Below, piece by piece: positions 691 through 45,065 of a DNA stretch of 57,385 nucleotides (the stretch's first letter is position 1; every line of letters starts with the position of its first letter). The stretch is from a virus (Duplodnaviria; Caudoviricetes). Where the stretch lies: positions 1-57,385 of the IMG/VR virus record IMGVR_UViG_3300021182_000018. One strand, written 5' to 3'. The position numbers were made by a program, and so were the translations under genes. The notes below the pieces were generated by a model. The model saw only the letters and a list, made by a program, of their open reading frames with translations, was not told the DNA's origin and ran no database searches.

Positions 691-738
691 ATTTTTATTT
701 ATGTAGACAATAAAATTCAAGTAGATTCAATTAAATTT

Positions 739-834: not shown

Positions 835-858
835 AAAAGTATTTAGTTCAAAAGAATC

Positions 859-1578: not shown

Positions 1579-1582
1579 TATT

Positions 1583-3275: not shown

Positions 3276-3283
3276 TGCTATGA

Positions 3284-4006
3284 TTACTCTTTAATAATAT
3301 ATGCTGTAGGGGCATTAAAATCCAAAGTTTTTATTGTTAGATTTTTTTCGGAAACAAATTTATCTACGCCAACAGATTCTGACCACTGGTGATATCCATA
3401 TTCATCAAAAACAACCATACCACCTTTCGAAACTCTTTCCCAAAAATTATTTAATGCTTCGTATGTAGGCTTTTCCAAATCTAAATCCATGTATAATATA
3501 GAAATTTTTGCTCCGACTCTTTCTTTAACATATTGTTTACTAGTCTCACAAACATCCCCTTCAATTAGTTCAAAATCATAATTCTCATAAAAATTAGAAT
3601 CCTCTAAAGTTTTTTTCAAATCATTTTTAAATATAGAAGTAAATGAAAAATTTCTATTGCTAAACAACTTTCCCATCATTTCTTTATCTTCGTAGTGTAA
3701 CGTATTTAATAATTTAGTATCGTTAAACATATCGAACCCGACGACTTTCTTAAAAGAATTCGGAGATAATATTTTTTTAATTTTTAACCAAGACATTATT
3801 CCGGATCCTTTGAAAACGCCACACTCTAATATATCACCAGGAACATCTAGTGTTTTATTAAATAAATTCACTCTAGCAATTAGTTTAGCCATAATTTTTG
3901 TATCATTGCTAAAAATAAAATCATTAAAACTATCAAATATTTCTTGTTTGGTAGTTACTATTTCTTCTTTATTATTAGCAAATTCTTTATTCATTTTCTT
4001 CTCCAT
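3284..4006 (-). CDS. TylF/MycF-family sugar O-methyltransferase
   Basis: VPGDILECGVFKG, GFDMF, LYMDLDLEKPT, GGMVVFDEY. Confidence 0.88.
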   Translation of the reverse strand: MEKKMNKEFANNKEEIVTTKQEIFDSFNDFIFSNDTKIMAKLIARVNLFNKTLDVPGDILECGVFKGSGIMSWLKIKKILSPNSFKKVVGFDMFNDTKLLNTLHYEDKEMMGKLFSNRNFSFTSIFKNDLKKTLEDSNFYENYDFELIEGDVCETSKQYVKERVGAKISILYMDLDLEKPTYEALNNFWERVSKGGMVVFDEYGYHQWSESVGVDKFVSEKNLTIKTLDFNAPTAYIIKE

Positions 4007-5034: not shown

Positions 5035-5043
5035 AATAAATCC

Positions 5044-5937
5044 TTATATTGTTTCTAAAATTTTTAATAGATTACTTATTCTATTTACGTATGTGTGTTT
5101 TTCTTTAATAAATTTTACTAAAGATTGCAGATGAGTTTTCGAAACACTTGCGTAAGACTGTTTAGAAACTTCATATAAATTGTTTTCAGAAGATACGGGA
5201 ATCTTATATTCAAAAACTTCTGCAACATATTCCGAATTTGTAGCTGTAAATTTTCCGTAGCTTAGATTCTTAAAAATTCTACAAGGAACATATCCACATT
5301 CTTTGTGCCATTCTCCTCTTACATCAGGACACACCAAAGATTTTTGAATTAGTTGTTTATGTTCTTCGTCAGATACATTAACACGGTTTATGAATTGTCT
5401 CCCATCTCTTATGCAACTTTCAGCAAATGGTTTTAATTGATTTATATTTTCGTTCCAAATAGACCCTACATAATAAATTTCTTTAAGATTGTTGTCGAAA
5501 GGAATTACTAAAGTTTCATCGATTTCATTAGGAGTTAAATCAGTTGCCCACATTTGATATAAGAGAATATTTTTAGAATCGTAATATACTTGGCTATCTA
5601 ATTTTTCTAAAGAAGCGCCTGGATAATAATGGTTCTTTCCTTCAGTGCAAAATTTCAAATAGTTTCCAAGTTGAAGATATTTACATCCTATATTTTTATA
5701 CTTTTCTAAATTACAATGATGAAGAATGTAATAAGAATTTTTCGAAAGTGGTATGTTAAAATCTACCTGACCCTCGGTAAAAAATAAACAGTTATCTATA
5801 GAAGATATTTCTAAAGGATTATCTAACCAATACGTTTCATATCCTAGATGTTTAAACGCTCTATAATAACTACTATGAATATGAGAATGAGTATGATTAG
5901 TTTTATGCCCCCAAATAATTACTTTGTCTATTTTCAT
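5044..5937 (-). CDS. Putative glycosyltransferase (CgeB-like C-terminus)
   Basis: GYVPCRIFKNLSYG and HTYVNRI C-terminal motifs; locus context. Confidence 0.6.
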   Translation of the reverse strand: MKIDKVIIWGHKTNHTHSHIHSSYYRAFKHLGYETYWLDNPLEISSIDNCLFFTEGQVDFNIPLSKNSYYILHHCNLEKYKNIGCKYLQLGNYLKFCTEGKNHYYPGASLEKLDSQVYYDSKNILLYQMWATDLTPNEIDETLVIPFDNNLKEIYYVGSIWNENINQLKPFAESCIRDGRQFINRVNVSDEEHKQLIQKSLVCPDVRGEWHKECGYVPCRIFKNLSYGKFTATNSEYVAEVFEYKIPVSSENNLYEVSKQSYASVSKTHLQSLVKFIKEKHTYVNRISNLLKILETI

Positions 5938-5940
5938 AAA

Positions 5941-6816
5941 TTATCCTAAAAAGAATTGTGGATAGGTAGCAACATTTTCTCTAATATATTTCGGAAAACT
6001 TTCATCCAAATCTGCCTTGAAATATCTTTCTCCGGGTCGATTAAATATATCTTGAAACGAATTTATCTTCTGTTCTAAATTTTGAAATATATAATCATTA
6101 GCGTATTCTATATGCCCGTAGCTAGAAATCTTAGTTTTAATTTTATCTATTCCACCCAAAAATGTTAAGTGATTTCCACCATTCTCTATTTGAACACCTT
6201 CGTTTTTATGGTTTCTCATATAGTTAGATTCTAGATTTTTTAATAACCCATATCTTAAAACTTTAGTTCCAAACCATCTTTCGTCTTTTCTTACATTGAT
6301 ATAATACTGAGACATCTTCATCATCAAATGTAAGAAAGTGTTATTAGGAACATTTTCGAAAACGTTTCTTAAAATTTCTGGATTTGGTATTTCGTCCAGG
6401 TCTGAAAGCATTATAATGTCTTCATCTTCACAATCCACCAAACCTCTCTTTACGAATTCTCTTTGGCAAAAATCTCTAAGCCATTGGTGTTCGTTTAATC
6501 CCAATTCTCTATTTTTATCTATTGCCAAAATTATCTTATTAAACTGTATATCATCTTTAGAAAGTTCTGGTTTTAACAATGCTGGAATGTTTGAGCTTTG
6601 TTCTGGACAATCTGTAAACATCTTATGAATAATCTTATGATGAAATTTCTTAAATCTTTCTTTATTTTCATTGTAATAAAATGGTTTATCTAATCCTGAA
6701 AATGTTTTATTACATTCAGAAATCACAAAATAGTCTACATATTGGTCGAGAATATTAAGACGTATTTCTAAAAGATCTAATTCATTAAACAACATAAATG
6801 CATCATATACTTTCAT
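5941..6816 (-). CDS. GT17 beta-1,4-N-acetylglucosaminyltransferase-like
   Basis: YDAFMLFNELDLLEIRL, VDYFVISE..TFSG..KP, QRE, SDLDEIP, KISSYGH. Confidence 0.9.
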   Translation of the reverse strand: MKVYDAFMLFNELDLLEIRLNILDQYVDYFVISECNKTFSGLDKPFYYNENKERFKKFHHKIIHKMFTDCPEQSSNIPALLKPELSKDDIQFNKIILAIDKNRELGLNEHQWLRDFCQREFVKRGLVDCEDEDIIMLSDLDEIPNPEILRNVFENVPNNTFLHLMMKMSQYYINVRKDERWFGTKVLRYGLLKNLESNYMRNHKNEGVQIENGGNHLTFLGGIDKIKTKISSYGHIEYANDYIFQNLEQKINSFQDIFNRPGERYFKADLDESFPKYIRENVATYPQFFLG

Positions 6817-6818
6817 AA

Positions 6819-7712
6819 TTAAACTCCGAACCCATTAGTTATTAGCCAGTTGTTACAATCTTTTCGAGAATCTTCATAATTTTTTAGAACGCCATTTCGA
6901 TCTAAGTATTCCCATCCAGGATAAATGTTTTGAGAAGTCGCCCAATAGCCAGTAGAAATATTCCATCTAGCCCAATAAGCCGGAGCGATAATTTTCTTAA
7001 GATTATTATTCGTGAGTGCTGCGAAAATTGGGAAAGACGAATTACAAAGAATAAGATATTTAGAATGATTTATTAAAGTGTAATCAACAGCTATAGAAAA
7101 ATGATAAGCAGGAATTCCTGGAAGAAATTGATTAGCACATTGGACATCGTCTGTAATAATTATAAATTTTATATTAGAGGTTTCTTCTAACATACATTGC
7201 ATAGCCTTATAATAATATTCAGAACGTATAATCAGATTTCCATAATTTCTATATTCCCCACCTCTAAAATTTATCAAACATGTATTATCATCTAAGTTGA
7301 TGTTATTAGAAGTCGCTATATCGTTAGTTTCTGCTATAGTTTCTTGCTTTATCTTTAGCCATTCTTTTATATCGTCTAGTCTATCATAAAAATAAACAGG
7401 AGATTGAAACACACCAAACAGTTCCGTATTGTCTTGAATAGAAAAAACATCCCAATCAACTGGCCTAATATCTATATTATCTCCCATATGATTAAATCTT
7501 ATGTCTTTCTCTCTAAACTCTTTTTGAATATTTTTCGGAAACTCTCCATAATCAATTTCCATAAAATCCATTTGTCGAGAACCATTATAATAATCATAAG
7601 AAGGGGTAGGATTAAATCCCCAAGCGTATCCTAATCTTTCGGCCATGGCTCTGGTAGAAACATAATAAGCAAGGTGGTTACCTAAGTTTCCTGTAAATTT
7701 TGTAGTTATCAT
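6819..7712 (-). CDS. Second GT11-like glycosyltransferase (divergent)
   Basis: GNLGN, G.FQS, FRGGEY, ITDD, NSSF motifs. Confidence 0.8.
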   Translation of the reverse strand: MITTKFTGNLGNHLAYYVSTRAMAERLGYAWGFNPTPSYDYYNGSRQMDFMEIDYGEFPKNIQKEFREKDIRFNHMGDNIDIRPVDWDVFSIQDNTELFGVFQSPVYFYDRLDDIKEWLKIKQETIAETNDIATSNNINLDDNTCLINFRGGEYRNYGNLIIRSEYYYKAMQCMLEETSNIKFIIITDDVQCANQFLPGIPAYHFSIAVDYTLINHSKYLILCNSSFPIFAALTNNNLKKIIAPAYWARWNISTGYWATSQNIYPGWEYLDRNGVLKNYEDSRKDCNNWLITNGFGV

Positions 7713-7724
7713 TTTATTCTCTTT

Positions 7725-8378
7725 TTATAATTTTTCTTCAAACGCACATGAAAAAATTGTCCAGAGCATTCTTTCAAAAATATATGCCTCTGCTTGATTT
7801 ACATCTTTAGAAAGCATCTCTAAAAGCTTTCTCCACCATTCTTTAGAATAGTGTAATATTCTTTCTTTTTCAACTATATACATTCCACCAGGAGCAAATT
7901 TTATATATTGTGGATAATAAGGATTTTTGAAAACATTATCTAACGCTTGATTATAGGTTTGAAATATGCTTGCATAATTCCTTGGATGTGATATTATCAT
8001 TCCATTATTATTTTCTTCTGTCCACCCAGCAGTAGCATCTTTCATTGCGGTTCTGTGGTCAGCAGCATTTTCGTAAGACTCTAAACAAGTAAAAAATTTG
8101 TTATGAATAATCCTATCTAATTTTTGTTTATTACAATGGTCAAAAGGATGACCTTCTAAGAACGCGACCAAGTTCGGAAGATTATTATAATTGCTGTAAC
8201 AATAGTGAAATATATCATGTAAATTGTGCCCAACGTTTTCGAATTTAATTACTTTAGGTCCTTCTGGAAGAGTATTAGATTTATCATAAATTATGTAATC
8301 GTCTGTATATTCTTCTATCCAACTAACATCATTATTCCACTGGCTTACTACAAAAAATGCTTCTGGTTTCATTTTCAC
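7725..8378 (-). CDS. DUF3431-like protein
   Basis: VVSQWNNDVSW, IYDK, NVG, FLEGHPFDH, FAPGGMYIV, FERMLW. Confidence 0.7.
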   Translation of the reverse strand: MKMKPEAFFVVSQWNNDVSWIEEYTDDYIIYDKSNTLPEGPKVIKFENVGHNLHDIFHYCYSNYNNLPNLVAFLEGHPFDHCNKQKLDRIIHNKFFTCLESYENAADHRTAMKDATAGWTEENNNGMIISHPRNYASIFQTYNQALDNVFKNPYYPQYIKFAPGGMYIVEKERILHYSKEWWRKLLEMLSKDVNQAEAYIFERMLWTIFSCAFEEKL

Positions 8379-9031
8379 CCCACAAAATCTCTATATTTTA
8401 TATGATCGTTATTTCCAAATCCGTGAAAAGCAAAAGATTCTCTACTCAATCCAGGTATCCAAGCTTCTGTAGAAAAATTTGCGGCAAGTTCTTTCGAAGC
8501 ATATTTAATACCATTTTCTAAAAACAGTTTTCTATAATACACACAAAAATTTCCATCATCATTATAAAATCCTTGACGATGTGACAAAGGAATCCCCAAT
8601 TTTGTAGGTAATTCTAAAATCTTTTTCGAACGCAAGCAAACACCACCATTTCCAACTTCTACGTGCTCTCCATCATCTGTTAAATATGAAGAATCTGACC
8701 ATGCCCAAGGTGCCCCGATATAATCAAAATTTAGAAACTCGCTATCCCATAAATCAGGTCTCACTACAAATCCGTCATGATGAACTAATAAACTATGCGA
8801 AGTATCTATGTGTTGCCAAAGTTTTAGAAAAGTATATTCCGAAAATCCATCGTAACTTAATTTATCACAAGGAACATATTCTACGGTTTCTGGAAGATCT
8901 GGTTTAACGTCAGATATAAATTTAACGGCACCATATTTAATTCCTTCCATACTTTTCAACATTGCTTTAACGTTTTGTTCAATTTTTACGGAAGTTACTA
9001 TTGTAAGTGTTACGTCTTTTAAGTCTAACAA
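8375..9031 (-). CDS. DUF5672-like GT-A protein
   Basis: LLVHHDGF, FLNFDYIGAPW, VGNGGVCLRS, FAFHG. Confidence 0.75.
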   Translation of the reverse strand: MLDLKDVTLTIVTSVKIEQNVKAMLKSMEGIKYGAVKFISDVKPDLPETVEYVPCDKLSYDGFSEYTFLKLWQHIDTSHSLLVHHDGFVVRPDLWDSEFLNFDYIGAPWAWSDSSYLTDDGEHVEVGNGGVCLRSKKILELPTKLGIPLSHRQGFYNDDGNFCVYYRKLFLENGIKYASKELAANFSTEAWIPGLSRESFAFHGFGNNDHIKYRDFVG

Positions 9032-9705
9032 AAATATTTTCTCCTAATATATAATTCTTCATTGTTTCTTAATTCATTATTTGCTATAGTATTTGTGGTT
9101 TGATTTTCATGTATATAATTTACCATGGTATCATTTTCGGAAACATTTGGAAAACTATATTTAAGAAACATTCTTTTATAAAATTCACAATCATACATAT
9201 ATTTCAAATTCTCATCAAACAAAACCCCTAAGCCGTTTTTGATAATCAATGCACTCGGGGTTCCTAAAGTATTTGTCAATTCTATATTATTATTAAAACT
9301 AGGAACATGTCTTCTTTCTAAATTTCTTCTGTCGGTAGAGTGCCAGTAAGAATTGAATCCCCAAACTTTTCCGGAATTTTCTAAATCATTTAAGCAAGTT
9401 TCTAAAGAATTTTTATCTATTAGAAAATCATCTTGACACAATAATTTAATATATTCTCCAGAACAATTTTGTAATCCTAGATTCGTATTGCTTGCAGGAT
9501 TTCCTCTATCCTTTTCATTTCGAATATATTTTACGAAGTGATAGTTCTTAGATAAAATTTCTATATCATTATTTTCCGAATGGTCTGTAACAATTACTTC
9601 GAAATCTTTTAGAGATTGTTTCGAAAGTATATCTAAAGAAATTTTCAAAACATCTTTACCTACACCATTCATACTCCAACAAGGAATTGCTACAGACAAC
9701 TTCAT
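9025..9705 (-). CDS. GT2 glycosyltransferase
   Basis: LSVAIP, FEVIVTDHS, GEYIKLLCQDD, FDENL...DCEFY. Confidence 0.85.
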   Translation of the reverse strand: MKLSVAIPCWSMNGVGKDVLKISLDILSKQSLKDFEVIVTDHSENNDIEILSKNYHFVKYIRNEKDRGNPASNTNLGLQNCSGEYIKLLCQDDFLIDKNSLETCLNDLENSGKVWGFNSYWHSTDRRNLERRHVPSFNNNIELTNTLGTPSALIIKNGLGVLFDENLKYMYDCEFYKRMFLKYSFPNVSENDTMVNYIHENQTTNTIANNELRNNEELYIRRKYFC

Positions 9706-10400
9706 AGAGATAAAAATTCCTTCATCTTAGAAAGATTCATAGTAACATCTTTAGGCATTTTTGGATTATTTGGTTCTCCTAAAATCACAAAAGGATTGGT
9801 TCTGTGTGCAAGTACTAACATATTTTTTCTTTCAGTTCCTACGTTAAAAACTCCTTTAGCATCCTTTTCTATCAATTGAATAATGAGTCCTGCAATAACA
9901 TCTACATAATCAAAATTCCCTACTTGAGGAACTGCGGTAGGATATTGAAAAGGAGTCTTCTTAAAGCTGGTTCTAATCACCAAGGAATCGTTTGAGAGAG
10001 TTGAAGCATACATATCGCCAATTTTTTTCGAATGCCCGTAGAACGTATCTAAAGGAAAAATCTCCGAATCGGATTCCTTACCATCTGTTCTAGAATTTGC
10101 GTAAAGATAATCTGTAGAAATATGAACCAACTTAATTTTTTCTTCATTACAAAAATTAACCAAATCTAAAACTCTTCCAGCATTTATAGAAAGATGTTCT
10201 TGTTCATCTCCTCCATAAGTGTCCGTGTTAGCTATGCAATTTATAACAACATCATATTCATTGTAACGAATTATGTTAAAATAATATTCTATATCTGTGC
10301 CGAAATCAAACCCGTGAGACTTTCTTGAAATAAAATCACATCCAGTTTGTTTCCTCAATTCTGTTCCTAGTAATCCATCCCCTAAAATTATTGGTCTCAT
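9702..10400 (-). CDS. NDP-4-keto-sugar reductase (RmlD-like SDR)
   Basis: GDGLLG Rossmann motif, HISTDY, YGHSK (YxxxK), IRTS. Confidence 0.85.
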   Translation of the reverse strand: MRPIILGDGLLGTELRKQTGCDFISRKSHGFDFGTDIEYYFNIIRYNEYDVVINCIANTDTYGGDEQEHLSINAGRVLDLVNFCNEEKIKLVHISTDYLYANSRTDGKESDSEIFPLDTFYGHSKKIGDMYASTLSNDSLVIRTSFKKTPFQYPTAVPQVGNFDYVDVIAGLIIQLIEKDAKGVFNVGTERKNMLVLAHRTNPFVILGEPNNPKMPKDVTMNLSKMKEFLSL

Positions 10401-11701
10401 TTGAAATTCCTAATGGTTTCTTCTATGTATTGTAAGATTTCTTCTGTGTATTGAGGAGAGGATCCTATGAAAAATACGTGAGAAAGAACTTTATTTGCTT
10501 CCGGATAATCTCTAAAGTTTCCTAAGTGTTTATATCCAGGATGTAATAGAAGATTCCCAGCAAAATAGTGTCTAGTCTGAATTTTCTTTTCTTCAAAATA
10601 TGCTACAAGTTTTTCTTTATATTGTCTATCTTTACAAACAATAGGCGTTCCAAACCAAGAAGTTTCCGCTAATGATAATTCTTCTGGGACATGAACATCT
10701 AGATGTTTCTTAAGCATTTTTGAAATAGTTTTCTTAACAAACTTACGCTTTTCGTGTATTTCATCAAATTTTTTCAATTGAACCAAACCAATTGAGCCTT
10801 GCAAATCTAGTGGCTGAAGATTATACCCCATTGTAGAAAACACATACTTATGATCGATTATTCCATCATAATCATCAAGCCATGTATCAAATCTATTTCC
10901 ACAAGCACCGTTAGGAAGTAAATTTCCTGCACCACAACAGTAACACGCTCTCGACCATAGCGCAAAACTTCTAGCTAATTGAATTAAGTCTTTATCATTC
11001 GAAACAACCATTCCCCCCTGTCCGGTCGAGATATGGTGCGATGGATAAAAGCTAAAAGAAGAAACATATCCATACTCATTTAAGAAAATCCCATTCCATT
11101 TACTTCCAAGAGAATCACAATCATCTATTAAAAGTTTAAGATTATGTCTGGTGCAAATGTCTACAAGTCTATCCATGTCAGGAGGATTTCCTAAAACTGG
11201 TGATAAAAAGATTGCTTTAGTTTTTTCGGAAATCTTCTCTTCAATTAGATTCAAATCGAAGTTCAAACTATTCATTTCGATATCTATAAAAACTGGAACC
11301 AAATTATTCTGAACAATAGGAGCAACAGTAGTAGGAAACCCAACAACAGATGTAATTATTTCATCTCCATCATTCCACCCAAGATGTTTTTTTGTTGCGG
11401 CTATTAAAACTAAATTTGCAGATGAACCAGAATTAACCATCAATGCATGTTTTTGATTTATTTTTCTAGAGAATGCTATTTCGAATTTTCTAACTTCTTC
11501 ACCAGACGAAATCCAAGCTCCAGTTAAAAGAGTTTTAGTAGCAGCAATAATTTCTTCATTATCAAAATAAGGACCCGAATAATAAACAGGAGTAACACCA
11601 GGAACAAATTTAGAACCATTGTTATAAACGTATCTTAAAACACTATGTTCCTTTCCTATGTTCTCGATAACTTCTTCTAACTGTTCTTCAATAGTTTTCA
11701 T
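10397..11701 (-). CDS. rfbH: RfbH/DdhC-like NDP-4-keto-6-deoxyhexose 3-dehydrase (DegT/DnrJ fold)
   Basis: VNSGSSANL, DDCDSLGS, SFYPSHH (His replacing the Schiff-base Lys), CYC...C cluster, DHKYVF..GYNL. Confidence 0.88.
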   Translation of the reverse strand: MKTIEEQLEEVIENIGKEHSVLRYVYNNGSKFVPGVTPVYYSGPYFDNEEIIAATKTLLTGAWISSGEEVRKFEIAFSRKINQKHALMVNSGSSANLVLIAATKKHLGWNDGDEIITSVVGFPTTVAPIVQNNLVPVFIDIEMNSLNFDLNLIEEKISEKTKAIFLSPVLGNPPDMDRLVDICTRHNLKLLIDDCDSLGSKWNGIFLNEYGYVSSFSFYPSHHISTGQGGMVVSNDKDLIQLARSFALWSRACYCCGAGNLLPNGACGNRFDTWLDDYDGIIDHKYVFSTMGYNLQPLDLQGSIGLVQLKKFDEIHEKRKFVKKTISKMLKKHLDVHVPEELSLAETSWFGTPIVCKDRQYKEKLVAYFEEKKIQTRHYFAGNLLLHPGYKHLGNFRDYPEANKVLSHVFFIGSSPQYTEEILQYIEETIRNFK

Positions 11702-12429
11702 TAAAATAACCTCGGATATCTTTGTTTAGCTCTTATCAAATTGGAATACTCTTGTTGCATTCCGCCATTCACTTTAAAATCGTTCAAGTCAGTCTCTACG
11801 TTATACACATAATTTATATCATTTGTAAAGTAGACATTTTCTTTTCCTACCATTTCTAACATAGGATATATAATCGCTTGGTCTCCAGTAACTTCCCAAA
11901 AATTTCCGGAAGGACTTCTCAAATCCTCTTCCAAAATTTTTCGAAAAACCTTTGCCTTAAATGTTCTTAAATGTGAAGTAGTCCAAGCAGAACCTCTCAA
12001 ATTATTAAAATCTGGAGCACATGTAAACCCATTTGAATATTGATTTTCACCATGATACTGAATAAACTGCCCAAAAGACATTAAGAAATTTGTCCGGAAA
12101 TAATATCCGAAAACTCTTCCTAAAGTATTGACCTCGGAAAACCAATCATCGCCGTCAAGGGTCACTAAAACATCTTCATCATCTACAAAAGGAAGTCTAG
12201 AAATTTGCCAGTAGTTCCCAGGTTGATAAAATTTAGTTTGGTTCTCTATTAGAATAAATCTTGGATCATCTTTAATCAAATCTTTTACAATAGCTTTGGA
12301 ATTATCGGAAGAAATATCATCTGTAATTACCATGAGAAAATTTTTGAAAGATTGACACTTAACAGAATCAATACACTTTTGAATGTATTTCTCTGCGTTA
12401 TAAAGGGTGGTCATGATTACTAGTTTCAT
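11701..12429 (-). CDS. GT2 glycosyltransferase
   Basis: YNAEKYIQKCIDSV, TDDISSD, TLDGDDW, SHLRTF. Confidence 0.88.
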   Translation of the reverse strand: MKLVIMTTLYNAEKYIQKCIDSVKCQSFKNFLMVITDDISSDNSKAIVKDLIKDDPRFILIENQTKFYQPGNYWQISRLPFVDDEDVLVTLDGDDWFSEVNTLGRVFGYYFRTNFLMSFGQFIQYHGENQYSNGFTCAPDFNNLRGSAWTTSHLRTFKAKVFRKILEEDLRSPSGNFWEVTGDQAIIYPMLEMVGKENVYFTNDINYVYNVETDLNDFKVNGGMQQEYSNLIRAKQRYPRLF

Positions 12430-19909: not shown

Positions 19910-20311
19910 CTAAACCCTATCAACCAAGGTCGTTTGAAACTCATAAGAATTATTATAAAAAGCTTGCAGAAAGATCGAATTAAACTCCGGCAAACCTTGA
20001 GCAAATTTGTAACCATGTTTCTCTAAATTTTCTACAATAATCTTTCCTATATCATTCCTGTTCAAATTGTCTACATCAAAAATCTCTGAAAGTTTAACCG
20101 AATCATTTCCAATTTTTATTTCAAAGTTTACACCAATCTTCAAAGACTTTTCCGAATAGATTTCCTTTACCTTAGAAGGCTTTTGGAAAACATTTGGAAA
20201 CATCGGATTATTTTTCTCTACGGTAGGCCAGATTCGGAAAACGTTTGGAGAATCTTTTCGGAAAAATCTCCACATAGCTATTTCAGAATCTTTTCTTAAA
20301 AGTTCTATCAT
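19910..20311 (-). CDS. Hypothetical protein
   Basis: 133 aa with GAGG RBS and a dedicated promoter at 20327-20355. Confidence 0.65.
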   Translation of the reverse strand: MIELLRKDSEIAMWRFFRKDSPNVFRIWPTVEKNNPMFPNVFQKPSKVKEIYSEKSLKIGVNFEIKIGNDSVKLSEIFDVDNLNRNDIGKIIVENLEKHGYKFAQGLPEFNSIFLQAFYNNSYEFQTTLVDRV

Positions 20312-21981
20312 AAGTCCTCTAGAGATATTGTAACATCTTTAATGTAGACTGTCAAGGAAGATTTGGTCAACCTTGACAGACTGTTTTTCGAAGGATATTT
20401 CGGAAAAGGTTTTAGAAAACTTTCAAGATAATATTCTCTAACGTTTAAGTAATTTGATTCTTTATTTTGTTCAATGTTTTCCGAAACATCTAATTCAATT
20501 TTTAAAGTATTTTTCAAAAAATCTATAAGCATATTTTCTGGAGATTTTTCGAAATATGGTATACAAAGAAGAGGTATTTGATTGGTTCCGCAATATGTCT
20601 TTTTGATGGTGTCTCTTGCCTGTCGTTCTTTTAATTCCTCTTCCATTTCTTCTAAGGTCATGCTAGAAGTAAAATCGGTAGGAATATAATGTTGTTCTCC
20701 ATGATATTCAACAAGTCCTAATAATTTTTCGCGATCATCTAAAATACCAAAATCAAACGGCAATGGAAGTATATTTTTACAGTCTAGGAATTTATATTGT
20801 GGTTCGTTTTTCATATTATACTTTTTTAATAGTTTTAATATCTTTCGTTCGCCCTGAGACATATTACAAGTAGGACATCCACAGCCGGCTAAATGGTCAT
20901 GTGGAACTTGCCAGAATGGACCATGTTTTTCGCAAATTATCATTAAAGGAGTTTTTGAATTTACATAAGTTGCAGAAATATACGAATAACCCTCTCCATG
21001 TTCTTCAATAGCATCGTCTATAAATTCCAGAGTAGTTTTTAATTGATTCCCATAACATTTTCGACAACCAGCACCTTGACTAGTATGAGAATTCGGAGTT
21101 TGATAAAAAGCACCATGATCTGGGCATATAATTTTAATTTTTGTTTTGCTTCCAACATATTCATCAGGATACTCATATTGGTCACCATGAACTTTCCTAG
21201 CTTCTGTTAAAAACGATTTAGTATCAAAAATTGGTCTAGAGCACTGCGAACAACCTTCGCCAAATGTGTGTTTGCTTGGAGCTTGATAAAATGGGCCATG
21301 CTCAGGACATATAATTTTAATTTTTATTTCCGAACCTTTGTATTCTTCTGGGTATTCGTATTTGTCTCCGTGTTCTTCTCTAGCATCTATTAAAAATTCT
21401 TCGTGAGTTTTCTTTTTTGTTCCGCCACATTCATCGCAACCATGTCCTCTTAAGTGATCGCTTGCTGTTTGTAAAAATGTTCCGTGTGTTGGACATTCAA
21501 TTTCTATTTTATTATTCGCACCAGTGTATAATCCAACATATTTATATTTGTTTTCGTGTTTATCGCTGGCCTGTTTAACATATTCTTCGTGAGTTTTCTT
21601 TTTTGGTTTTGCGCAAAAAGGGCATCCACAACCATTGGTATGCATATATGGTTTTAGAAAAAACTCACCATGTTCTGGACATATGATACGAATTGGTTTA
21701 TGAGAACCTAAATAATCATCAGGATATTTATATTTGCTATCATGAACAAAATTAGCATCTATTATAAACTGCTCTGTAGTTTTTCTTAAATTTCCGCCAC
21801 AAACTTGACAACCATGTCCTGCTAAATGATGCCCGGCGTTACATAAAAATTCTCCATGATCTGGACAAATTATTTTAATATATTTCGAAGAACCTTGATA
21901 TTCCTCTGGATATGAATAAAAGAAATTAAATTTATTGTTAACTCTTTCTAAAAATTCAATGTTAGTTATTTTCTTAGCCAT
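20308..21981 (-). CDS. Hef-like free-standing endonuclease: six DUF723-type repeats plus C-terminal PD-(D/E)xK-like domain
   Basis: Six ~60 aa repeats Y.Y...Y......I.IICP.HG.F......H..G.GC..C; C-terminal LPFDFG...LVEYHGEQHY. Confidence 0.82.
   Translation of the reverse strand: MAKKITNIEFLERVNNKFNFFYSYPEEYQGSSKYIKIICPDHGEFLCNAGHHLAGHGCQVCGGNLRKTTEQFIIDANFVHDSKYKYPDDYLGSHKPIRIICPEHGEFFLKPYMHTNGCGCPFCAKPKKKTHEEYVKQASDKHENKYKYVGLYTGANNKIEIECPTHGTFLQTASDHLRGHGCDECGGTKKKTHEEFLIDAREEHGDKYEYPEEYKGSEIKIKIICPEHGPFYQAPSKHTFGEGCSQCSRPIFDTKSFLTEARKVHGDQYEYPDEYVGSKTKIKIICPDHGAFYQTPNSHTSQGAGCRKCYGNQLKTTLEFIDDAIEEHGEGYSYISATYVNSKTPLMIICEKHGPFWQVPHDHLAGCGCPTCNMSQGERKILKLLKKYNMKNEPQYKFLDCKNILPLPFDFGILDDREKLLGLVEYHGEQHYIPTDFTSSMTLEEMEEELKERQARDTIKKTYCGTNQIPLLCIPYFEKSPENMLIDFLKNTLKIELDVSENIEQNKESNYLNVREYYLESFLKPFPKYPSKNSLSRLTKSSLTVYIKDVTISLEDL
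20327..20355 (-). promoter_or_regulatory. sigma70-type promoter
   Basis: TTGACA-gtctacattaaagatgt(17)-TACAAT. Confidence 0.75.
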
Positions 21982-22074: not shown

Positions 22075-23226
22075 TTAGGGTTCTTCTCCTTCATCGACAA
22101 ATACAAGATTCTGAGCAACTACAGTATTATCCTCTTCTACATTTAGAGAATCTTTTGAATGTTTTCCTAATTGATACATACATTCAATTCTATAAATTAA
22201 ATCGGTTTCCTTAAAAATAGTTTGCCAAAATTCTTCAGCATCATCAATATCCTTTTCTAACACTTTCAAAACATTTCCTGAAATAGTTTGATATTGATAA
22301 GCATTTCGTTTCCCTTCTTTAGCCTTATCTATGATGCCCAAATCAACTGCAATAACATCTAATCCAGAATACTTTGACATACTCCCATCCCACTTAATCG
22401 AAAATGGTATTACGGTTCCTTCTTTAACGTCTCTAGATTTATTAACTTTAAGAAGAAATTTATATCCAACATGGGTTTCTCCTTCCTTAAGCTTTTGTTT
22501 AGTCGTTACGAAAATACTATTACTAGCCAAAACCGAACCTTGACCCCCTCCAATAACGACGCTGGGATAAAAAGTTGAAATATCATTGTAAATATGGTTA
22601 ATTACTATTGTCGGAATTTTCTTCAAACAAATTTTTGGAGTAATTATTCTAAATAATGACTTCAAACTTTTTGGTCTCGATAAATCAAGAGCTGACTTCA
22701 TATTTTCTGCATCATTTAATTCTTTTAGAGAACTAGAAAGTCCCAAAGAATCAATACCAAAAATCACTTTATCGTCAATAGTTAACATGTCTAATTGTTT
22801 TACCATTTCAAATTTTAATTCTTCTATTGATTGAAATGGAAGATGCACCACAGAATTTGGGTCTATATCAAATAATTCGAAGTAAGATTTTCTAGTTCCA
22901 AATTCATTATCAAAAAATAAAAATAACGACCCTGGATTTGCTTTCAAATATGCACTAGCCAAAAGTAACATAAACGAAGACTTAAACGTTTTAGATACCC
23001 CACAAAATTGAATAATTCCAGGAGTAATCCCACCATCTAGCAATTTTCCCTTAAGAGCAACATTCATCATGGGGTAGTCTGTTGGAATTGGCTTATCTTC
23101 ATCTAATATTTGAGACTCTGATAATTTACAAGCCAGAGGTATACTACTATTCTTCAAAATACGATCCATCAAACTCGCAGCTTTCCCCATTCCACCGATT
23201 TCTTTTTCTTTCTTTTCTTTAGCCAT
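22075..23226 (-). CDS. uvsX: RecA-like recombinase UvsX
   Basis: GVSKTFKS Walker A, FFDNEFG, IDSLG..S.KE, KSLFRI, INHIY, GGGQG, KSRDVKE. Start reassigned to the ATG at 23226 (AAGGAG upstream). Confidence 0.95.
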   Translation of the reverse strand: MAKEKKEKEIGGMGKAASLMDRILKNSSIPLACKLSESQILDEDKPIPTDYPMMNVALKGKLLDGGITPGIIQFCGVSKTFKSSFMLLLASAYLKANPGSLFLFFDNEFGTRKSYFELFDIDPNSVVHLPFQSIEELKFEMVKQLDMLTIDDKVIFGIDSLGLSSSLKELNDAENMKSALDLSRPKSLKSLFRIITPKICLKKIPTIVINHIYNDISTFYPSVVIGGGQGSVLASNSIFVTTKQKLKEGETHVGYKFLLKVNKSRDVKEGTVIPFSIKWDGSMSKYSGLDVIAVDLGIIDKAKEGKRNAYQYQTISGNVLKVLEKDIDDAEEFWQTIFKETDLIYRIECMYQLGKHSKDSLNVEEDNTVVAQNLVFVDEGEEP

Positions 23227-23292
23227 TTCGAAAATTCTCCTTAAAAGTTTACGCAAAAGTTTTCACAAAAATTTCTCTAAAAACAATTCAAA

Positions 23293-23457
23293 TTATGATT
23301 CCATTTGTTTATATTCATATGGTCTTGACAAAGCATATGCTAAAGCCATTGGTGGTTGCATTGCAGAAACACCAACAATAGGTAAAGCAAATTCCGGAAA
23401 ATAAAAATTTACATTAACGTTAATTCTCTTTTCTTTTGTTCTGTATTTTTTGCTCAT
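23293..23457 (-). CDS. 54 aa mini-protein containing a major-capsid-protein (gp23) fragment
   Basis: Not in ORF track. MSKKYRTKEKRINVNVNFYFPEFALPIVGVSAMQPPMALAYALSRPYEYKQMES; 15/29 ungapped identities to gp23 YYEHFAHRVVGLQAMNGPVGLAYALRRAY. ATGA overlap with the upstream stop. Confidence 0.8.
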   Translation of the reverse strand: MSKKYRTKEKRINVNVNFYFPEFALPIVGVSAMQPPMALAYALSRPYEYKQMES

Positions 23458-23693
23458 TTTCTATTTCCTACAGTTATTATTTCTTTAACTCCAAATTCTT
23501 TCAAATATTTTCTAAACATATTTCCAGCATGTGTCAAATACTGTTGTTCTTTTTGTGGTGGGAAGTTTGGAAGAGGGATTTGAACTATTAGAACATCACC
23601 AACTTTTTCAAAAAACCATTTAGAATAATTTTCAGAAATCTTATTAGCAAGGTTTTCGAAAAGATTATCTAAAAGTTTTTCAAATATTTTCAT
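23454..23693 (-). CDS. 79 aa mini-protein containing a portal (gp20) clip-like fragment
   Basis: PPQKEQQYLTHAGNMFRK vs portal PPGKAEEYLKGLIARYRK (7/18 identical, ungapped); start overlaps the gp43 stop. Confidence 0.65.
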   Translation of the reverse strand: MKIFEKLLDNLFENLANKISENYSKWFFEKVGDVLIVQIPLPNFPPQKEQQYLTHAGNMFRKYLKEFGVKEIITVGNRK

Positions 23694-26122
23694 TAATCAT
23701 CCTCAATCATTTTTAAAAGTTTACTATCTTTTAAAGTAATGGTTCCAAATTTTAGTGTATCAAACATTCTTTGTGCAGGAGCTAAATATTGTTTTTCGAA
23801 TTGTGTTTCGTAATCTATTTGAAAAAGTTTATCGAAAGCCGCTGGCCAATTTCCTATGTATCCTATAGCATTTGTTTTATATTTGTTGTTTGGATTTACG
23901 TATACATATTTCATTTTAGTTCCGTTTACAATTTTAGTCAATGGTAAATTGTTATCTTCTACTACATGATTATAAATTATAGATGCACGATTATATATTG
24001 GAGTCCCTTTATTAAAGTCTGTGAAGCCTTCTACTGAATATTTATCATAATCGTTAATACCTTTTGGTGCGGAAATGTCAGAAATTTTTTGAAGTTTGAA
24101 CTCTTTATATGCCTTCCTAATGTGAGTTAACATGTTTTCTCTATTAGGAAGTTCATCAATTTTTCCAGCAAACATAATGTGTAGAAGTTGTTCAAGATTT
24201 TTTCTAGAGAACATACACAAATCTGATTTCTTAATTTCCAGTCCGGTAATTGCGAAGTCTGGTGTTTCATAAATTTCTTCTTCATTTGCTAAGTTTAATG
24301 TAGCATATTTCTTCTTTTGTTGAACATAAATCTTAGCAATAATCTTTTCTCTTTTGAAATGGATTAGGTTCTTTGTATTGTATTTTTCGGCAAACTCTTC
24401 CATAATAACTTTCAAAAATGGTTCTAAAACTTTTTTCTGAAAGTCTAAAGAAAACTCTAGGAATGATTTTTCTGGTGCTAGACTACTATAAAGATAGGAT
24501 AAATCGAAAAACCGAGAATCTGTGTCGCAGAGGATGGACAAAGACTTTTTAATTTTTGTATGATTGAATGTATTATTTGGATAAATTTCGTCTGCAAGTT
24601 TCTTAAAATCTTTCTTAATATATTCATCAAATTTTGTTTTAACGTGAACAATTGCTTCTCTTCCAACTGCCGTAATTACCGAACCATTATCGAAATCATA
24701 GAAATGAAAATGAGCTTCCAAACAACTTCCAAAAACACCATTCGCCAAAATTTTTATAATTGCTTGTTGTGAGTTATAAAATTCTGCTTTTACTAAATCT
24801 TTTTCTTTCTTTGCTTTCTTTCCAGCATCCTTTAATGCCTTTCTATCATCAAACAATTTTTTAACAACAATTGGCAAAATTCCTTTAACGTTTTTTCTAT
24901 AATATATTCCAGGAAATTGTGTTTTAATTAGGTTAGGTATTTCTTCTTCTTTTGGATTTATTACTTTTGTTTCTGTAGATATATTAAACATCATAATAAT
25001 ATGCGGATAAAGAGCAGTAGCATCTATAGACAAAGAGTTTAGATAAAATCCAGGTTCAGTTTCTACCCATCCTCCTTTAATAGATCGCTCTTGTTCTGCC
25101 TTTATATCATGAGAAATATCAGACATTACAATATTGTTTTTATGCATATGTCTTAAAATATATCCTTCAATAACAGCAATTGTAGAAGATATTTTCGAAA
25201 AAGGAGTCCTAGTATGTGTGCAAAGGTCTATTGCAAGTTTTATAAATTTTTTCTTATCGTCTATCTTTTTAACTAATCGCAAATCTTGAAAATTATAATC
25301 TACAAATCTATTCCAATCGGCTTTCCAAAAATCGTTAATTGTTCCTTCGTATTCTAGCTTTCCTTCATTTACTTCCAACATTCCGATATAATTCAAAGAA
25401 AAAGATGGTTGGCTTTTTGCAGTAAACTTTTTATAAATATCCATACAATCTAATATGTCTATTCCTGGTATTACTATTTCTCCGTCATATTTTCTAATGA
25501 TTTTTCCAATAGAGGACAAACAACATTTAAGATTTAATGCATCAATTCTTTCTTGAATTTTCGGAATATCATACTTTGTCAAATTCCACCCAATAAGAAC
25601 GTTAACATGTTTTAGATGAAGAAATTTACAAAGTCTTTCTAAAAGAACTGATTCAGAATCGCAGTGTATATACTTTGTTTCTTTATTGTCTCCTGTATAT
25701 GGTTTAAGTCCTAATTGAAAGATTTCTCCAGTATGAAAATCTTCTAACCCAACTAGATTTATGGTTTCTGATTCTGGATATTCTGTTTCTATATCTATAT
25801 TAAAAATTGAATAGTCTTTTATATTAACTATATGTTCTTGGTCACCATATCTTTTATGAAGAAATTTTACCTCTTCTGATAAATCGGATTCGAATAGTTT
25901 TTCTCCAGAATCTCTAAGATCTTTCAAATTTTTCTTTGAATCTGTTATCTTTTTTGTAACAGAATTTCCGAAAATATCTTTAATAGGACTCTTACCACTC
26001 TTGTCTAAAACGTAATACTCAATATCATGCTTAAAAACATTATAAACAGTTTTACCATCCTCTCCAATTTCCCAGAGGTGCATTTTGTTATTCCAAGAGT
26101 CGTAATAAATATTCTTAAACAT
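23693..26122 (-). CDS. gp43: Family B DNA polymerase
   Basis: Exo motifs DIETE, GWN...YDIP, YNFQD; polymerase motifs DATALYP, KILANGVFG, DTDS, KKKY. Confidence 0.96.
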   Translation of the reverse strand: MFKNIYYDSWNNKMHLWEIGEDGKTVYNVFKHDIEYYVLDKSGKSPIKDIFGNSVTKKITDSKKNLKDLRDSGEKLFESDLSEEVKFLHKRYGDQEHIVNIKDYSIFNIDIETEYPESETINLVGLEDFHTGEIFQLGLKPYTGDNKETKYIHCDSESVLLERLCKFLHLKHVNVLIGWNLTKYDIPKIQERIDALNLKCCLSSIGKIIRKYDGEIVIPGIDILDCMDIYKKFTAKSQPSFSLNYIGMLEVNEGKLEYEGTINDFWKADWNRFVDYNFQDLRLVKKIDDKKKFIKLAIDLCTHTRTPFSKISSTIAVIEGYILRHMHKNNIVMSDISHDIKAEQERSIKGGWVETEPGFYLNSLSIDATALYPHIIMMFNISTETKVINPKEEEIPNLIKTQFPGIYYRKNVKGILPIVVKKLFDDRKALKDAGKKAKKEKDLVKAEFYNSQQAIIKILANGVFGSCLEAHFHFYDFDNGSVITAVGREAIVHVKTKFDEYIKKDFKKLADEIYPNNTFNHTKIKKSLSILCDTDSRFFDLSYLYSSLAPEKSFLEFSLDFQKKVLEPFLKVIMEEFAEKYNTKNLIHFKREKIIAKIYVQQKKKYATLNLANEEEIYETPDFAITGLEIKKSDLCMFSRKNLEQLLHIMFAGKIDELPNRENMLTHIRKAYKEFKLQKISDISAPKGINDYDKYSVEGFTDFNKGTPIYNRASIIYNHVVEDNNLPLTKIVNGTKMKYVYVNPNNKYKTNAIGYIGNWPAAFDKLFQIDYETQFEKQYLAPAQRMFDTLKFGTITLKDSKLLKMIEDD

Positions 26123-33734: not shown

Positions 33735-34208
33735 ATGAACAACTTGAAGCTCTACAATAAACTGATAGAACATGCCAAGGAACAAAACCGAAAGAAAGGC
33801 TCAGACTATTTAGAAAACCATCACATCATTCCTAAGTGTTTGGGTGGGTCTAATAAAAAAGAAAATTTAGTTTTGTTAACTGCTAGAGAACATTTTCTTG
33901 CACATAAATTATTATCAAAAGCCTATCCTGAAAATAAAAGTTTGTTCATGGGCTATCATAAGATGTCTCTAAGTTCTTCCGAAAATCAACAAAGAATAAA
34001 ATTAAGTTCTAAAGAATACGAACAACTAAGAATTAAAAATGCATATTTCAACACTGGAAAATTAAATTGGAAAAGTCGCCCTGTAAAAATATATGATAGA
34101 GTTTTCGAAAGTGTTTGCTTGGCATGTATCGAAATGAGTATACCAGACACTACGATGAGAAGAAGGCTAAATAAAAAGATGAACGGATATATTTACCTTG
34201 ACACATGA
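33735..34208 (+). CDS. HNH homing endonuclease with C-terminal HTH
   Basis: ENHHIIPKCLGG.N...NLVLLTAREHFLAH; ATAAATA at 33722-33728. Confidence 0.88.
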   Translation: MNNLKLYNKLIEHAKEQNRKKGSDYLENHHIIPKCLGGSNKKENLVLLTAREHFLAHKLLSKAYPENKSLFMGYHKMSLSSSENQQRIKLSSKEYEQLRIKNAYFNTGKLNWKSRPVKIYDRVFESVCLACIEMSIPDTTMRRRLNKKMNGYIYLDT

Positions 34209-39010: not shown

Positions 39011-39514
39011 ATGTCTTTAGAAAACATTGAAAATCTAATAGCATCACTAATTAAGTCTGGTGATAAAGATACTATTTCGGACTGTATTAGCCTTCTTGAA
39101 GAGATAAGAGACTATAAAAAGCCTGTTAAATCTTCTCATCATTCTTCAAAACATTCCGAAAAACCTTCTCAAAAAGTTTCCGAAAAATCTCAGAAAAAAC
39201 CTTCAAGTCCACTTCAAGAAGAATTAGGAACTGCCGCGAGTCTTTTAGATTATGATTGGAAAGAAGGACAATTAACAGAAAGACAACAATATCATCAACC
39301 ATTATACACTCCAGGAATGAGTAGACAACCTCAGTATTCTCCCCCTGGCCCATCTCAAGATTATCAGAGAGGGTTTGGAAGTCTTAATGGAGCGCCACAA
39401 CAGCCAGATTACGGAAACCCTGCTACAAACCTTCCGCAAGATGACCTAGTATTTTCGAAAAATCCTAATCCAGTTTTAGATGATATGACTAGTTTTGCGT
39501 CTAACTTGCTTTAA
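39011..39514 (+). CDS. Late hypothetical protein (Ser/Pro/Gln-rich)
   Basis: ATAAATA 38984-38990, AAGGA RBS. Confidence 0.6.
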   Translation: MSLENIENLIASLIKSGDKDTISDCISLLEEIRDYKKPVKSSHHSSKHSEKPSQKVSEKSQKKPSSPLQEELGTAASLLDYDWKEGQLTERQQYHQPLYTPGMSRQPQYSPPGPSQDYQRGFGSLNGAPQQPDYGNPATNLPQDDLVFSKNPNPVLDDMTSFASNLL

Positions 39515-39522
39515 GGAAAATA

Positions 39523-40101
39523 ATGAACTATAACGAATTCGGATTTATGCCTAATGGATTCTTTGTAAAATGCACTTCGGCTTATGACAGTGAACGAAGT
39601 CTTTATGAAGTTTTACAAATGGAAGGCTTTAACGAACGTGGGGTTCAAATGATTTATTATCCTGTAGACCTTGTAAATCCGGATTATCTTTTTGGCGAAA
39701 CTAACAACCTTGTAATAAACCGAAAATTCGAATATATGGGTTATTATGAATTACCGAATGAAGGAAGAAATGTAGGGATTTTAGGAATAGTAGGAACAGA
39801 TAATTTTCCGATATATGTTTCGAAACTTCATTATGATTTTGTTTCTACATATGATTCTTCAGGAACTTCGGCAGTTTTTCCGACATATCTTCCGAAAATT
39901 GGAGACCTTGTTTACGCAAAATATAATCAACAATTTTATAGAATCAATATGGTGAAATTAGAAGACGTAATATTTCTTCAAGGGAAACATACATATACAT
40001 TTTATCTAGAGAACTTTAGAAACAAAAATTATACATTAGGTCCAGCATTTGACAATCTTCCAAATGATCCTATACAATTGGTTGCTGGACAATGCAGTTA
40101 A
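39523..40101 (+). CDS. gp14: Neck/head-closure protein gp14 (main part)
   Basis: E....RG....YYP......D.LFGE, PKIGDLVY....Q.Y.I..V....FLQG. Confidence 0.8.
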   Translation: MNYNEFGFMPNGFFVKCTSAYDSERSLYEVLQMEGFNERGVQMIYYPVDLVNPDYLFGETNNLVINRKFEYMGYYELPNEGRNVGILGIVGTDNFPIYVSKLHYDFVSTYDSSGTSAVFPTYLPKIGDLVYAKYNQQFYRINMVKLEDVIFLQGKHTYTFYLENFRNKNYTLGPAFDNLPNDPIQLVAGQCS

Positions 40102-40403: not shown

Positions 40404-43400
40404 ATGCCATCAGCGATTCAGGGTAGATTTTATTACAAACAAGATACTAGAACTAATCTAAACGCAAATATTAGGACAAATTCTCTAGTTTTTGATTTAG
40501 ATAATAATAGAATTTTATATTCTCCAAGTGCGACTGGTTATTTCGAATTCTATCCTGGTCAAACCGTATTAAATGTTAGTTCGACTTCATTATCGGTTTT
40601 GTCTACGTCTTCTAGAAATATTTCCGTAGAATTATCTGCAACTGGTGTAACTCCTGGATTATATGGTTCTTCTACACAGATCCCGCAAATAATTGTAGAT
40701 AATTTTGGGAGAATTGTTTCTGCAAATTTTATTACAATTTCTGGTGGTTCTGGAACAAGTGGAACCGGAACTGTTACATCTGTCGGGGTTTCTTCAACAA
40801 CATTAACAATTTCAAATACTCCAATAACTGTCGCTGGAAATATAAATGTAAATCTTTCTGCGGTATCTACTCCAGGAATTTATGAAAAAATAGTTATAGA
40901 TAGTTTTGGTAGAGTTCTTTCCGGAAGTCTTTTAACAAGTGCTGACATACCTTTATTAAATTATCTTCCATCTTCAGGAACATCTTTACAAACAATTAAA
41001 TTAGCTACTTCTCAAAATTTTTCTATAATTGGTGATATATCTGCCGCAAACGTTTCTTTTAATGGAACGTCGGGAGTAATATTAAATTCTATTCTTTCTG
41101 CAACTGGAGTATCTGCTGGAACGTATGGAAGTTCGAATCAAATACCGCAATTAGTAATAGATTCTAAAGGAAGAATTTTATCGGCGTCTTATGTTTCTAT
41201 ACAAATTCCTACTACTTCTGGAACAGTTACTTCAGTAGGAATTACTTCAAATACATTAAATGTAGGTTCAAGTCCTATAACATCTTCGGGAAATATTTCG
41301 GTAAATTTGAATTCGTTTGGAACATCCGGAACTTTTTCTAAAATATCTTCGGATCCTTATGGCAGGGTTATTTCAGGAACAACTTTAACTTCGGGAGATA
41401 TTCCTCAACTTCCGTATGATGCTATTTCTGCGTCATTGGCTTGGTCTAGAATTTCTGGAACGCCGACAACTTTGTCCGGATACGGAATCACAAGTTCTGA
41501 TACACTATTTGATAAAAAATATCTATCAGCGATTCCATCATTAAATTACGGTTCCGTATCTTCAGTAGGTGTATCTTCAACAACCCTGATAATTGGATTA
41601 AGTCCAATCACCACATCAGGAAGCATTTCCGTAAACCTTTCAGCGACTGGTGTAAGCGGTGTATATATTAAAGTTCAAACTGATACCTTTGGTAGAGTAA
41701 TTTCCGGAACAACTTTAACATCTGCTGACATTCCAGTTCTTCCATATATTTCCGCAATTGGGACTTTACAATGGTCTCAAATTTCTGGAACTCCTACAAC
41801 ATTATCTGGTTATGGAATAACGAGTTCAGACCAGCTTTTTAATAACAAATATGCTCAAATTTCGGCAATACCTTCTTTATCTGGATTATCTTTGTATCTT
41901 CCTTTGAGTGGTGGAACATTAACAGGAAATTTATCTGGTCAGAACATTTCTGGGATACATTTCGGAAATCTTTCAGGAACGGCCAACCAATCTAACCAAT
42001 TAACTACTCCTCAGAATTTTGGAATAACTGGCGATGTATCTGCTGTAAATATTTTTTTCAACGGAACATCTTCAGTTACTTTTAATTCCGTTCTTTCGGC
42101 AACTGGCGTAACTCCTGGAATTTTTGGAAACGGGGTTAATGTTTCACAATTTCAGGTAGATGCTAAAGGAAGAATAATTTCCGCGTCAAATGTTGCAATT
42201 CAATTTCCGGGTGGTTCCGGAGGGGGTTCAGTTTCTTCCGTTGGAGTATCTTCTACTACATTAACTGTTGGGTTAAGTCCTGTAACAACTTCTGGAAATA
42301 TTTCCGTAAATCTTTCTGCCACTGGTGTAACTCCTGGTTCTTATGGAACAACTACACAAATTCCAGTATTAAATATAGATTCTTTCGGAAGAATTTTGAA
42401 TGCGTCTTTCGTAAATATTTCTGGTGCTGGTTCTTCAGGAACAGGAACCGTAACCTCTGTAGGATTAACATCAACCACGTTGACAATAGCTGGTTCTCCT
42501 GTCACGTCTTCTGGAGTTTTAACTGCTAATTTAAGTCCTTTTGGAACATCTGGAACATTTACAAAATTTTCTTCAGATCCTTATGGAAGAGTTATTTCAG
42601 GAACTACTTTAACCTCTGGAGATATTCCGGTTCTTCCTTATATTTCCGCAATCGGGACTTTACCATGGTCTCAAATTTCCGGAACTCCTACAACTCTTTC
42701 TGGGTATGGAATTGTTTCCGGGGATGTTTTATTTAATAACAAGTATGCTCAAATCTCAGCAATACCGTCTTTGTCTGGATTATCTCTGTATCTTCCTTTA
42801 AGTGGTGGAACATTAACTGGACCATTAACAGGAACCAACATATCTGCCAATAATATTTCTGGAACACATTTCGGAAATCTTTCTGGAGTATCTTTACAAA
42901 GTCTTACTGCAAACCAATTATTAAATTCTCAAAATTTTGGAATAGTCGGTGATATAGTAGCTTCAAACATTTCTTTCAATGGAACCGGATCTGTAATACT
43001 TTCTTCATCACTTTCTGCGGTTGGGACATCTGGCATATATACTAAAGTTCAAACGGATTCGAAAGGCCGCGTTATTTCCGGGACTACTTTAACATCTGGT
43101 GATATTCCTGCTCTTTCTTATCTTTCTGTAATACCTTCATTAAATTATGGTTCGGTTTCTTCCGTTGGTATTTCATCAACCACGTTAACAATAGGGTTGA
43201 CTCCGGTAACAACTTCCGGAAATATTTCTGTAAATCTTTCTCCCATTGGAACTAGTGGAGTTTATACAAAGATCCAATCAGATACTTTTGGTAGAGTAAT
43301 TTCAGGATCTACTTTAATCGTTTCTGATATACCTTCTTTATCTACTCTATATATTTCTACAACACTTTCTGGAACGGCTAATGGTGTAGCTCCTTTAGAT

Positions 43401-45056: not shown

Positions 45057-45065
45057 TGGAGATTT

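Follow-up and report, generated by a model that had tools for sequence, protein, structure and literature searches.

The window analysed in this study is a 57,385-nt stretch of DNA, taken at its full length from an uncultured virus record with an estimated completeness of about 27%; its GC content is 32%. The sequencing runs that contain it are labelled peat metagenomes, and no RNA run is among them. It comes from a divergent T4-like phage whose gp43 is about 27% identical to cyanophage polymerases. The gene under study, a 79-aa ORF (P0001), follows the DNA polymerase gene on the minus strand. The main features are:

23693–26122, minus strand: gp43, a family-B DNA polymerase, with a stop that shares 1 nt with the start of the 79-aa ORF
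23700–23704, minus strand: ribosome-binding site GAGGA, 6 nt before the ATG of the 79-aa ORF and within the 3' end of gp43
23454–23693, minus strand: 79-aa ORF P0001, member of a small-protein family
23517–23582, minus strand: P0001 residues 38–59, a strand-turn-helix that hhalign pairs with the portal clip tip
23532–23570, minus strand: P0001 core motif, residues 42–54, within the segment aligned to the clip tip
23293–23457, minus strand: 54-aa ORF P0003, of which 29 residues match the major capsid protein
22075–23256, minus strand: UvsX recombinase (phrog_97, E 3.5e-61), the next downstream gene
48696–50390, plus strand: T4-type portal P0002 (T4 gp20 chains, E ~1e-49; homologues with PF07230)
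49506–49571, plus strand: portal P0002 residues 271–292, clip tip (T4 gp20 286–307), the segment matched by the family profile
55166–56458, plus strand: major capsid protein, source of the segment matched by the 54-aa ORF

The 79-aa ORF is a real, conserved gene. The original prediction had placed it at 23454–23693, coupled to the genes on both sides, and this is what the DNA contains: the minus-strand ORF shares one base of its start with the gp43 stop (TAATG at 23691–23695), and its own stop overlaps the start of the 54-aa ORF (ATGA at 23454–23457). Orthologues occupy the same position after gp43 in all eight related loci (six IMG/VR relatives and two metagenome loci), and the one-base overlap with gp43 is kept in each of them. 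Pairwise dN/dS values of the orthologues are 0.21–0.32, calculated from small counts (1–12 synonymous and 1–13 non-synonymous differences). Promoter-like sites were no commoner than in shuffled sequences, and a search for terminators found none.

Gene order around the locus

The minus strand carries, in this order, gp46, gp55, gp47, a glycosyltransferase-like gene, a DHH phosphoesterase, several small ORFs and gp43. After gp43 come the 79-aa ORF, the 54-aa ORF, UvsX, an HNH homing endonuclease, a 133-aa ORF and the gp41 helicase, followed by two ORFs without assignment (126 and 178 aa), gp32 and primase. On the plus strand are UvsY, a helicase, neck-like genes (neck proteins at 39011–40101), a 1550-aa repeat protein and a sheath-sized ORF, followed by the portal, prohead protease, scaffold protein and major capsid protein. 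The large terminase profiles PF03237 and PF17289 match nothing in the ~27%-complete window record or in six related virus records. The plus-strand region 40404–48684, upstream of the sheath-sized, tube-sized and portal genes, has no large terminase where T4 has gene 17; it instead encodes the 1550-aa protein, which has repeated tail-fiber or decoration-like domains.

Further features of the window deserve mention. Between UvsX and the 133-aa ORF, the gene for an HNH homing endonuclease (20308–21981, minus strand) is polymorphic among the relatives: it is full-length in some (L003), shrunk in L001, L002 and L009 to a 57-aa ORF that apparently joins both of its ends (L001 7577–7750), and swapped in L004, L006 and L010 for an unrelated 602-aa ORF (L004 7586–9394). 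Three further homing-endonuclease-like genes lie on the plus strand at 33735–34208, 52384–53865 and 56602–57270; a 493-aa gene of the GIY-YIG type sits between the prohead protease and scaffold genes, and one homing-endonuclease-like gene directly follows the capsid gene. The left end (103–12429, minus strand) carries a serine-recombinase or transposase-like gene at 103–720 and a long run of glycosyltransferase, aminotransferase, epimerase and methyltransferase-like genes.

The 54-aa ORF had been described as a capsid mimic that forms a two-gene head-mimic cassette with the 79-aa ORF. Its capsid match is well founded, since residues 19–47 align to residues 84–112 of the major capsid protein with an E value of 2e-8 and 15/29 identities. 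The cassette is not: beside the window, the 54-aa ORF is present in one of the eight related loci (L005), and in the other seven the family gene leads directly to UvsX. The pairing is thus not conserved, and the 54-aa ORF is an accessory neighbour. We presume that its capsid match may cover the same stretch as the Gol region. Capsid residues 84–112 align to residues 38–66 of a T4-type mature capsid chain. The Gol region is described as a 29-residue, EF-Tu-binding segment in the first quarter of gp23, and as the most conserved part of that protein (PMC3014915).

The small-protein family and its predicted fold

An exhaustive HMMER search of 1.84 billion representatives returned 16 proteins at E <= 0.001, two of which are long repeat proteins and were discarded as false matches; a profile search of a clustered collection returned 21 proteins. 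Together these searches define a new, previously unnamed family of at least 24 metagenomic proteins of 64–101 aa. The 24 full-length members that were aligned are 27–86% identical to P0001, and M1, V34 and P40 are the only invariant columns. No fused long form was found, the two repeat proteins being the only long matches in the exhaustive search, which had no length limit. No significant Pfam or PHROG family was found for P0001 or any of the 24 members, and a search of the PDB with the family profile gave no match at E values up to 10, so the profile does not reach T4 gp20 itself. In cultured phages, tblastn of P0001, P0014 and P0017 against 50,697 phage records gave nothing significant; blastn of the region gave no match, and the ESM Atlas no usable one.

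Further scans of viral contigs for distant loci recovered the same six close loci or none, and a scan of genome contigs gave a single 16-residue match that was not trusted. A metagenome scan yielded two close loci and one distant locus (L008), where the gene order is gp45 sliding clamp, a 214-aa ORF, the family member and gp44 clamp loader, and where the member overlaps its upstream gene as in the gp43-type loci. The 214-aa ORF (L008 826–1470, plus strand) is acidic at its N-terminus and basic in its tail; it contains a CxxC...CxC cysteine cluster and has no PHROG match. The order gp43, family member, UvsX recurs in nine loci including the window. Both known contexts thus lie among replication genes, so that the family gene counts as an accessory of T4-like replication modules.

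An AlphaFold2 model built from 24 sequences has a mean pLDDT of 82.6, with residues 27–79 mostly above 90 and the N-terminal helix at about 58; this helix is variable and amphipathic across the family. The predicted elements are a helix at 2–22, strands at 27–31 and 34–40, helices at 46–61 and 64–67, and a strand at 71–77. The confidently predicted core consists of a beta-hairpin followed by a helix and another strand, and in the model the clip-tip copy falls on the loop between strand 2 and the helix and on the start of that helix. This core has three strands and one helix in the order strand-strand-helix-strand, which differs from the strand-helix-strand-strand order of the portal clip. Conserved and exposed charges on the family helix (K48, E50, E51 and K54) are more suggestive of a binding face than of a core. 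The gp20 clip has been assigned to residues 279–358, with three strands and helix alpha6 (PMC4493910).

Structure searches of the model gave no firm relative. Portal chains are absent from the best 50 matches of each of four structure searches (Foldseek and VIA), and Foldseek against the PDB and BFVD gave nothing at E <= 0.001. A PD-(D/E)xK cap-snatching-type endonuclease in the top Foldseek rows (E 0.04 or worse) was rejected, as the family does not conserve the acidic and lysine catalytic residues of such enzymes and has no invariant columns beyond the three named above. Two VIA searches of 48,161 chains peaked at Z 6.1 with model 1 and at Z 4.8 with the better model 2, both within the stated noise range. 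Ring-building-motif domains (PrgK, EscJ, FliF, SpoIIIA) and other small alpha-beta-beta-alpha-beta units have the same order of elements as the P0001 model; they are the top VIA rows for model 1, aligning over 71–75 residues at an rmsd of about 3 A with a Z of 5.5–6.1, within the noise range, and against the better model 2 their Z drops to 3.2–3.5. Their sequence identity to P0001 is 4–10%.

Likeness to the portal clip tip

According to the original prediction, the 79-aa ORF carries a segment like the portal clip. The two peptides on which this was based occur as described, at P0001 residues 36–62 and portal residues 269–295 (nt 49500–49580), with 7/27 identities, and the portal segment does follow RAPERR in P0002. 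Compared as single sequences, the two proteins match at chance level: BLASTP gives an E value of 0.13 over 19 residues, and the Smith-Waterman score of 33 is reached by 162 of 500 shuffles of P0001. The segment emerges at the family level, when the 24 members are compared with an alignment of 50 portals that are 32–69% identical to P0002. Here hhalign gives a probability of 92.1, a P value of 6.3e-7 and a score of 48.3 over 22 columns, pairing residues 29–50 of P0014 with residues 271–292 of P0002. The proposed pattern PPxKxxxYLx6(F/Y)RK survives in part: its core appears in the family as G-x-[LM]-P-P-x-K-A-E-E-Y-L-K, and the (F/Y)RK end is not conserved. The fuller family consensus for strand 2 and the helix start is V-H-[IV]-P-x-G-[NRK]-[LM]-P-P-x-K-A-E-E-Y-L-K, and column counts give a modal or co-modal residue common to family and portals at 13 consecutive positions.

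This match withstood the controls applied to it. None of 130 column shuffles of the family reached the real score (mean 14.0, sd 2.5, maximum 23.8, against 48.3), and the reversed family profile scored 13.0. Omission of the window's own clade left a P value of 4.8e-7, and comparison with the 33 lower rows of the portal alignment alone gave 1.1e-6. Among 150 window ORFs (all six-frame ORFs of at least 50 aa), the portal was the best non-self match, at 38.4 (P 1.9e-5), and the next scored 16.4. With an HMMER profile of 20 distant members, 103 of 121 portals outscored each of the 242 decoys, which were reversed or shuffled sequences, and in 102 of the 121 the match started no more than 15 residues after RAP[ED]R[RK]. 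A profile of the family type also matched the portal ORF in three of five related virus records, at an E value of 0.002–0.01 per record.

Curated collections point in the same direction. Pfam Portal_T4 (PF07230) weakly matches three of the 24 members, all from one 96-aa subclade, and does not match P0001; the best of these matches reaches 14.4 bits against a gathering cut-off of 22.9 (E 0.016, model positions 209–231). PHROG 213, 'portal protein', is likewise weakly matched by three of the 24. The portal family had been named beforehand, and it ranks second by members matched both of 24,736 Pfam families and of 38,880 PHROG families. In statistical terms, then, the motif match is real at the level of sequence profiles. 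The four sequences of the window's clade alone give a P value of 0.0094, and the motif in P0001 itself is degraded (KEQQYL); the clip-like segment of P0001 is thus, as judged from the profiles, a weak shadow of a strong family-level feature. The case illustrates how a motif that escapes notice in one sequence can be recovered with profiles of its family. The likeness is confined to 22 columns, with no extension in a low-mact hhalign run, and it may have arisen either by descent, as a captured portal fragment, or by convergence.

The copied segment can be placed on T4 gp20, since P0002 numbering is converted to that of the T4-type portal chains by an offset of +15. P0002 residues R276, L277, G280 and K281 correspond to gp20 N291, M292, R295 and K296, which have been reported as probable contacts of gp17 residues D325, E326, N338, N341 and S344 (Sun et al. 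2015, PMC4493910). The same report describes loss of packaging in the gp20 mutants N291A-M292A and R295A-K296A, as well as a 24-residue gp20 peptide, 288–311, that binds gp17 and inhibits packaging (PMC4493910). This peptide corresponds to P0001 residues 40–63, and the clip-tip match covers most of it. At the tip the portal consensus is G-[RN]-[LM]-P-x-G-K-A-E-E-Y-L-K, with a strand-turn-helix as in the family. The proteins otherwise differ: T4-type portals are dodecameric, with subunits of 500–600 aa that have crown, wing, stem and clip, whereas the family members are free-standing, 64–101 aa long, with a small fold of their own, encoded among replication genes and without likeness to the portal outside the 22 columns.

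At a later stage the same alpha6 helix and strand of gp20, with R295 and K296, are reported to bind gp13, the neck adaptor, by its C-terminal arm, which inserts between two adjacent alpha6 helices (PMC12929587). A second point of comparison is T4 gp40, the head vertex assembly chaperone. It is described as necessary for portal assembly and encoded between uvsX and 41 (PMC9958956), and is thus a small, portal-linked protein whose gene adjoins uvsX in the replication and recombination block. The gene orders differ, as gp40 follows uvsX in T4 whereas the P0001 gene precedes UvsX. No sequence similarity was found between gp40 and the family (hhalign probability 0.1, with a single gp40 sequence), and the 133-aa ORF between UvsX and gp41 has no similarity to gp40 either. 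By eye, T4 gene 40 (L024 3050–3394, minus strand) has a strand followed by '...ERKAEL...', loosely like '...ARKAAEH...' of the T4 portal tip. A literature search at the level of abstracts found no description of a natural portal mimic or decoy, or of a portal-tip mimic.

Possible roles of the 79-aa protein

Our leading reading, held tentatively and at somewhat worse than even chances, is that the 79-aa ORF encodes a soluble stand-in for the clip tip that binds the large terminase and acts as a regulator or inhibitor of packaging. It draws on the profile match and on the analogy with T4. A conserved small protein of uncultured T4-like phages would be produced together with the replication genes and would present the portal clip tip in soluble form, so that it could bind a ligand of the portal clip. 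Among clip ligands, the large terminase is the best documented, through its ATPase domain, and the protein may keep the terminase away from proheads or act as a competitor for it; both the binding of terminase and its consequence are inferred. The clip-like segment maps on the gp20 tip and on the gp17-binding peptide, which makes the terminase-docking competitor put forward in the original prediction a well-founded hypothesis. The large terminase is the best candidate ligand because an isolated peptide suffices to bind it, whereas the gp13 site requires two neighbouring subunits. A complex prediction that combined P0017 (alignment A8) and residues 1–360 of T4 gp17, its ATPase domain, as a non-cognate stand-in gave no answer (score 0.00) and weighs on neither side. 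Several points count against a terminase-binding role: the match spans 22 columns, is degraded in P0001 and does not carry the family profile as far as T4 gp20; the order of predicted elements is not that of the clip, and the best 50 structure matches include no portal; both known contexts are replication modules and not packaging modules; and it is not apparent how a phage would put an inhibitor directed at its own terminase to regulatory use.

The main rival, possible and on balance doubtful, is that the protein is an accessory of the replication or recombination machinery, binding for example the polymerase, the clamp loader or UvsX, and that the motif is an old relic of a portal fragment or a convergent strand-turn-helix without a common ligand. 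The gene is always embedded among replication genes, between gp43 and UvsX in the nine loci and between gp45 with the 214-aa ORF and gp44 in the distant one; it is translationally coupled to its upstream gene in both contexts, and its portal likeness is limited to 22 columns. Yet nothing significant links the family to a known replication protein in Pfam, PHROGs or the PDB, and convergence without a common ligand does not easily account for 13 consecutive consensus residues in common, some of them exposed charges. T4 gene 40, moreover, indicates that head-assembly genes can occupy the replication module, which weakens the argument from position. That the portal resemblance arose by chance is very improbable: the single-sequence comparison stands at chance level, but the profile statistics and three kinds of control contradict this explanation, as does the second place of the pre-named portal family in both collections.

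A different ligand of the clip tip is an unlikely target, though one with precedents in T4. The protein would then bind a gp13-like neck adaptor, or factors at the membrane site of prohead initiation, and serve as a gp40-like helper or timer of head assembly. The binding of the gp13 arm to the alpha6 helix and strand, the dependence of portal assembly on gp40, the position of its gene and the variable amphipathic N-terminal helix of the family are consistent with such a role; against it, gp13 needs a groove between two alpha6 helices that a monomer cannot offer, and the family has no sequence similarity to gp40. Still less probable is an anti-defence decoy that occupies a portal-recognising host sensor of the Avs4 type without activating it, the other role proposed in the original prediction. 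Avs4 senses portal proteins, and a gene that is small and accessory, lies in a variable early region and, in two of nine loci including the window, adjoins an ORF that copies a conserved capsid segment would be in keeping with a decoy. However, portal sensors read larger surfaces than the clip tip, and here the copy is limited to the clip tip and leaves out the portal fold. An early portal look-alike is also expected to trigger such a sensor rather than to blind it, and the Avs4 half of the earlier reading is therefore unsupported.

To return to the reading of a soluble clip tip that binds the terminase, its extension to the biology of these phages is a possibility about which we are doubtful. 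T4-like phages of peat and fresh water may encode, among their replication genes, a natural terminase-docking tip that is made before heads, binds the large terminase and gates when, or whose, motor docks; in some genomes it is paired with a second early mini-protein, which copies a conserved segment of the capsid protein. If this is true, the pairing would point to a wider phage habit of making free-standing copies of the ligand-binding segments of their own head proteins.

In T4-type packaging, it is an open question how the terminase is restrained until proheads are ready and by what means it locates the portal. To our knowledge, the only portal-mimicking inhibitor is a synthetic peptide. 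If the proposed role is correct, the family would also supply a small tool for work on the portal-terminase interface, of which a T4 head review reports only a map at ~30 A (PMC9958956). A conserved natural protein that carries the clip tip would then represent a packaging regulator of a new class, or a weapon that phages use against their competitors.
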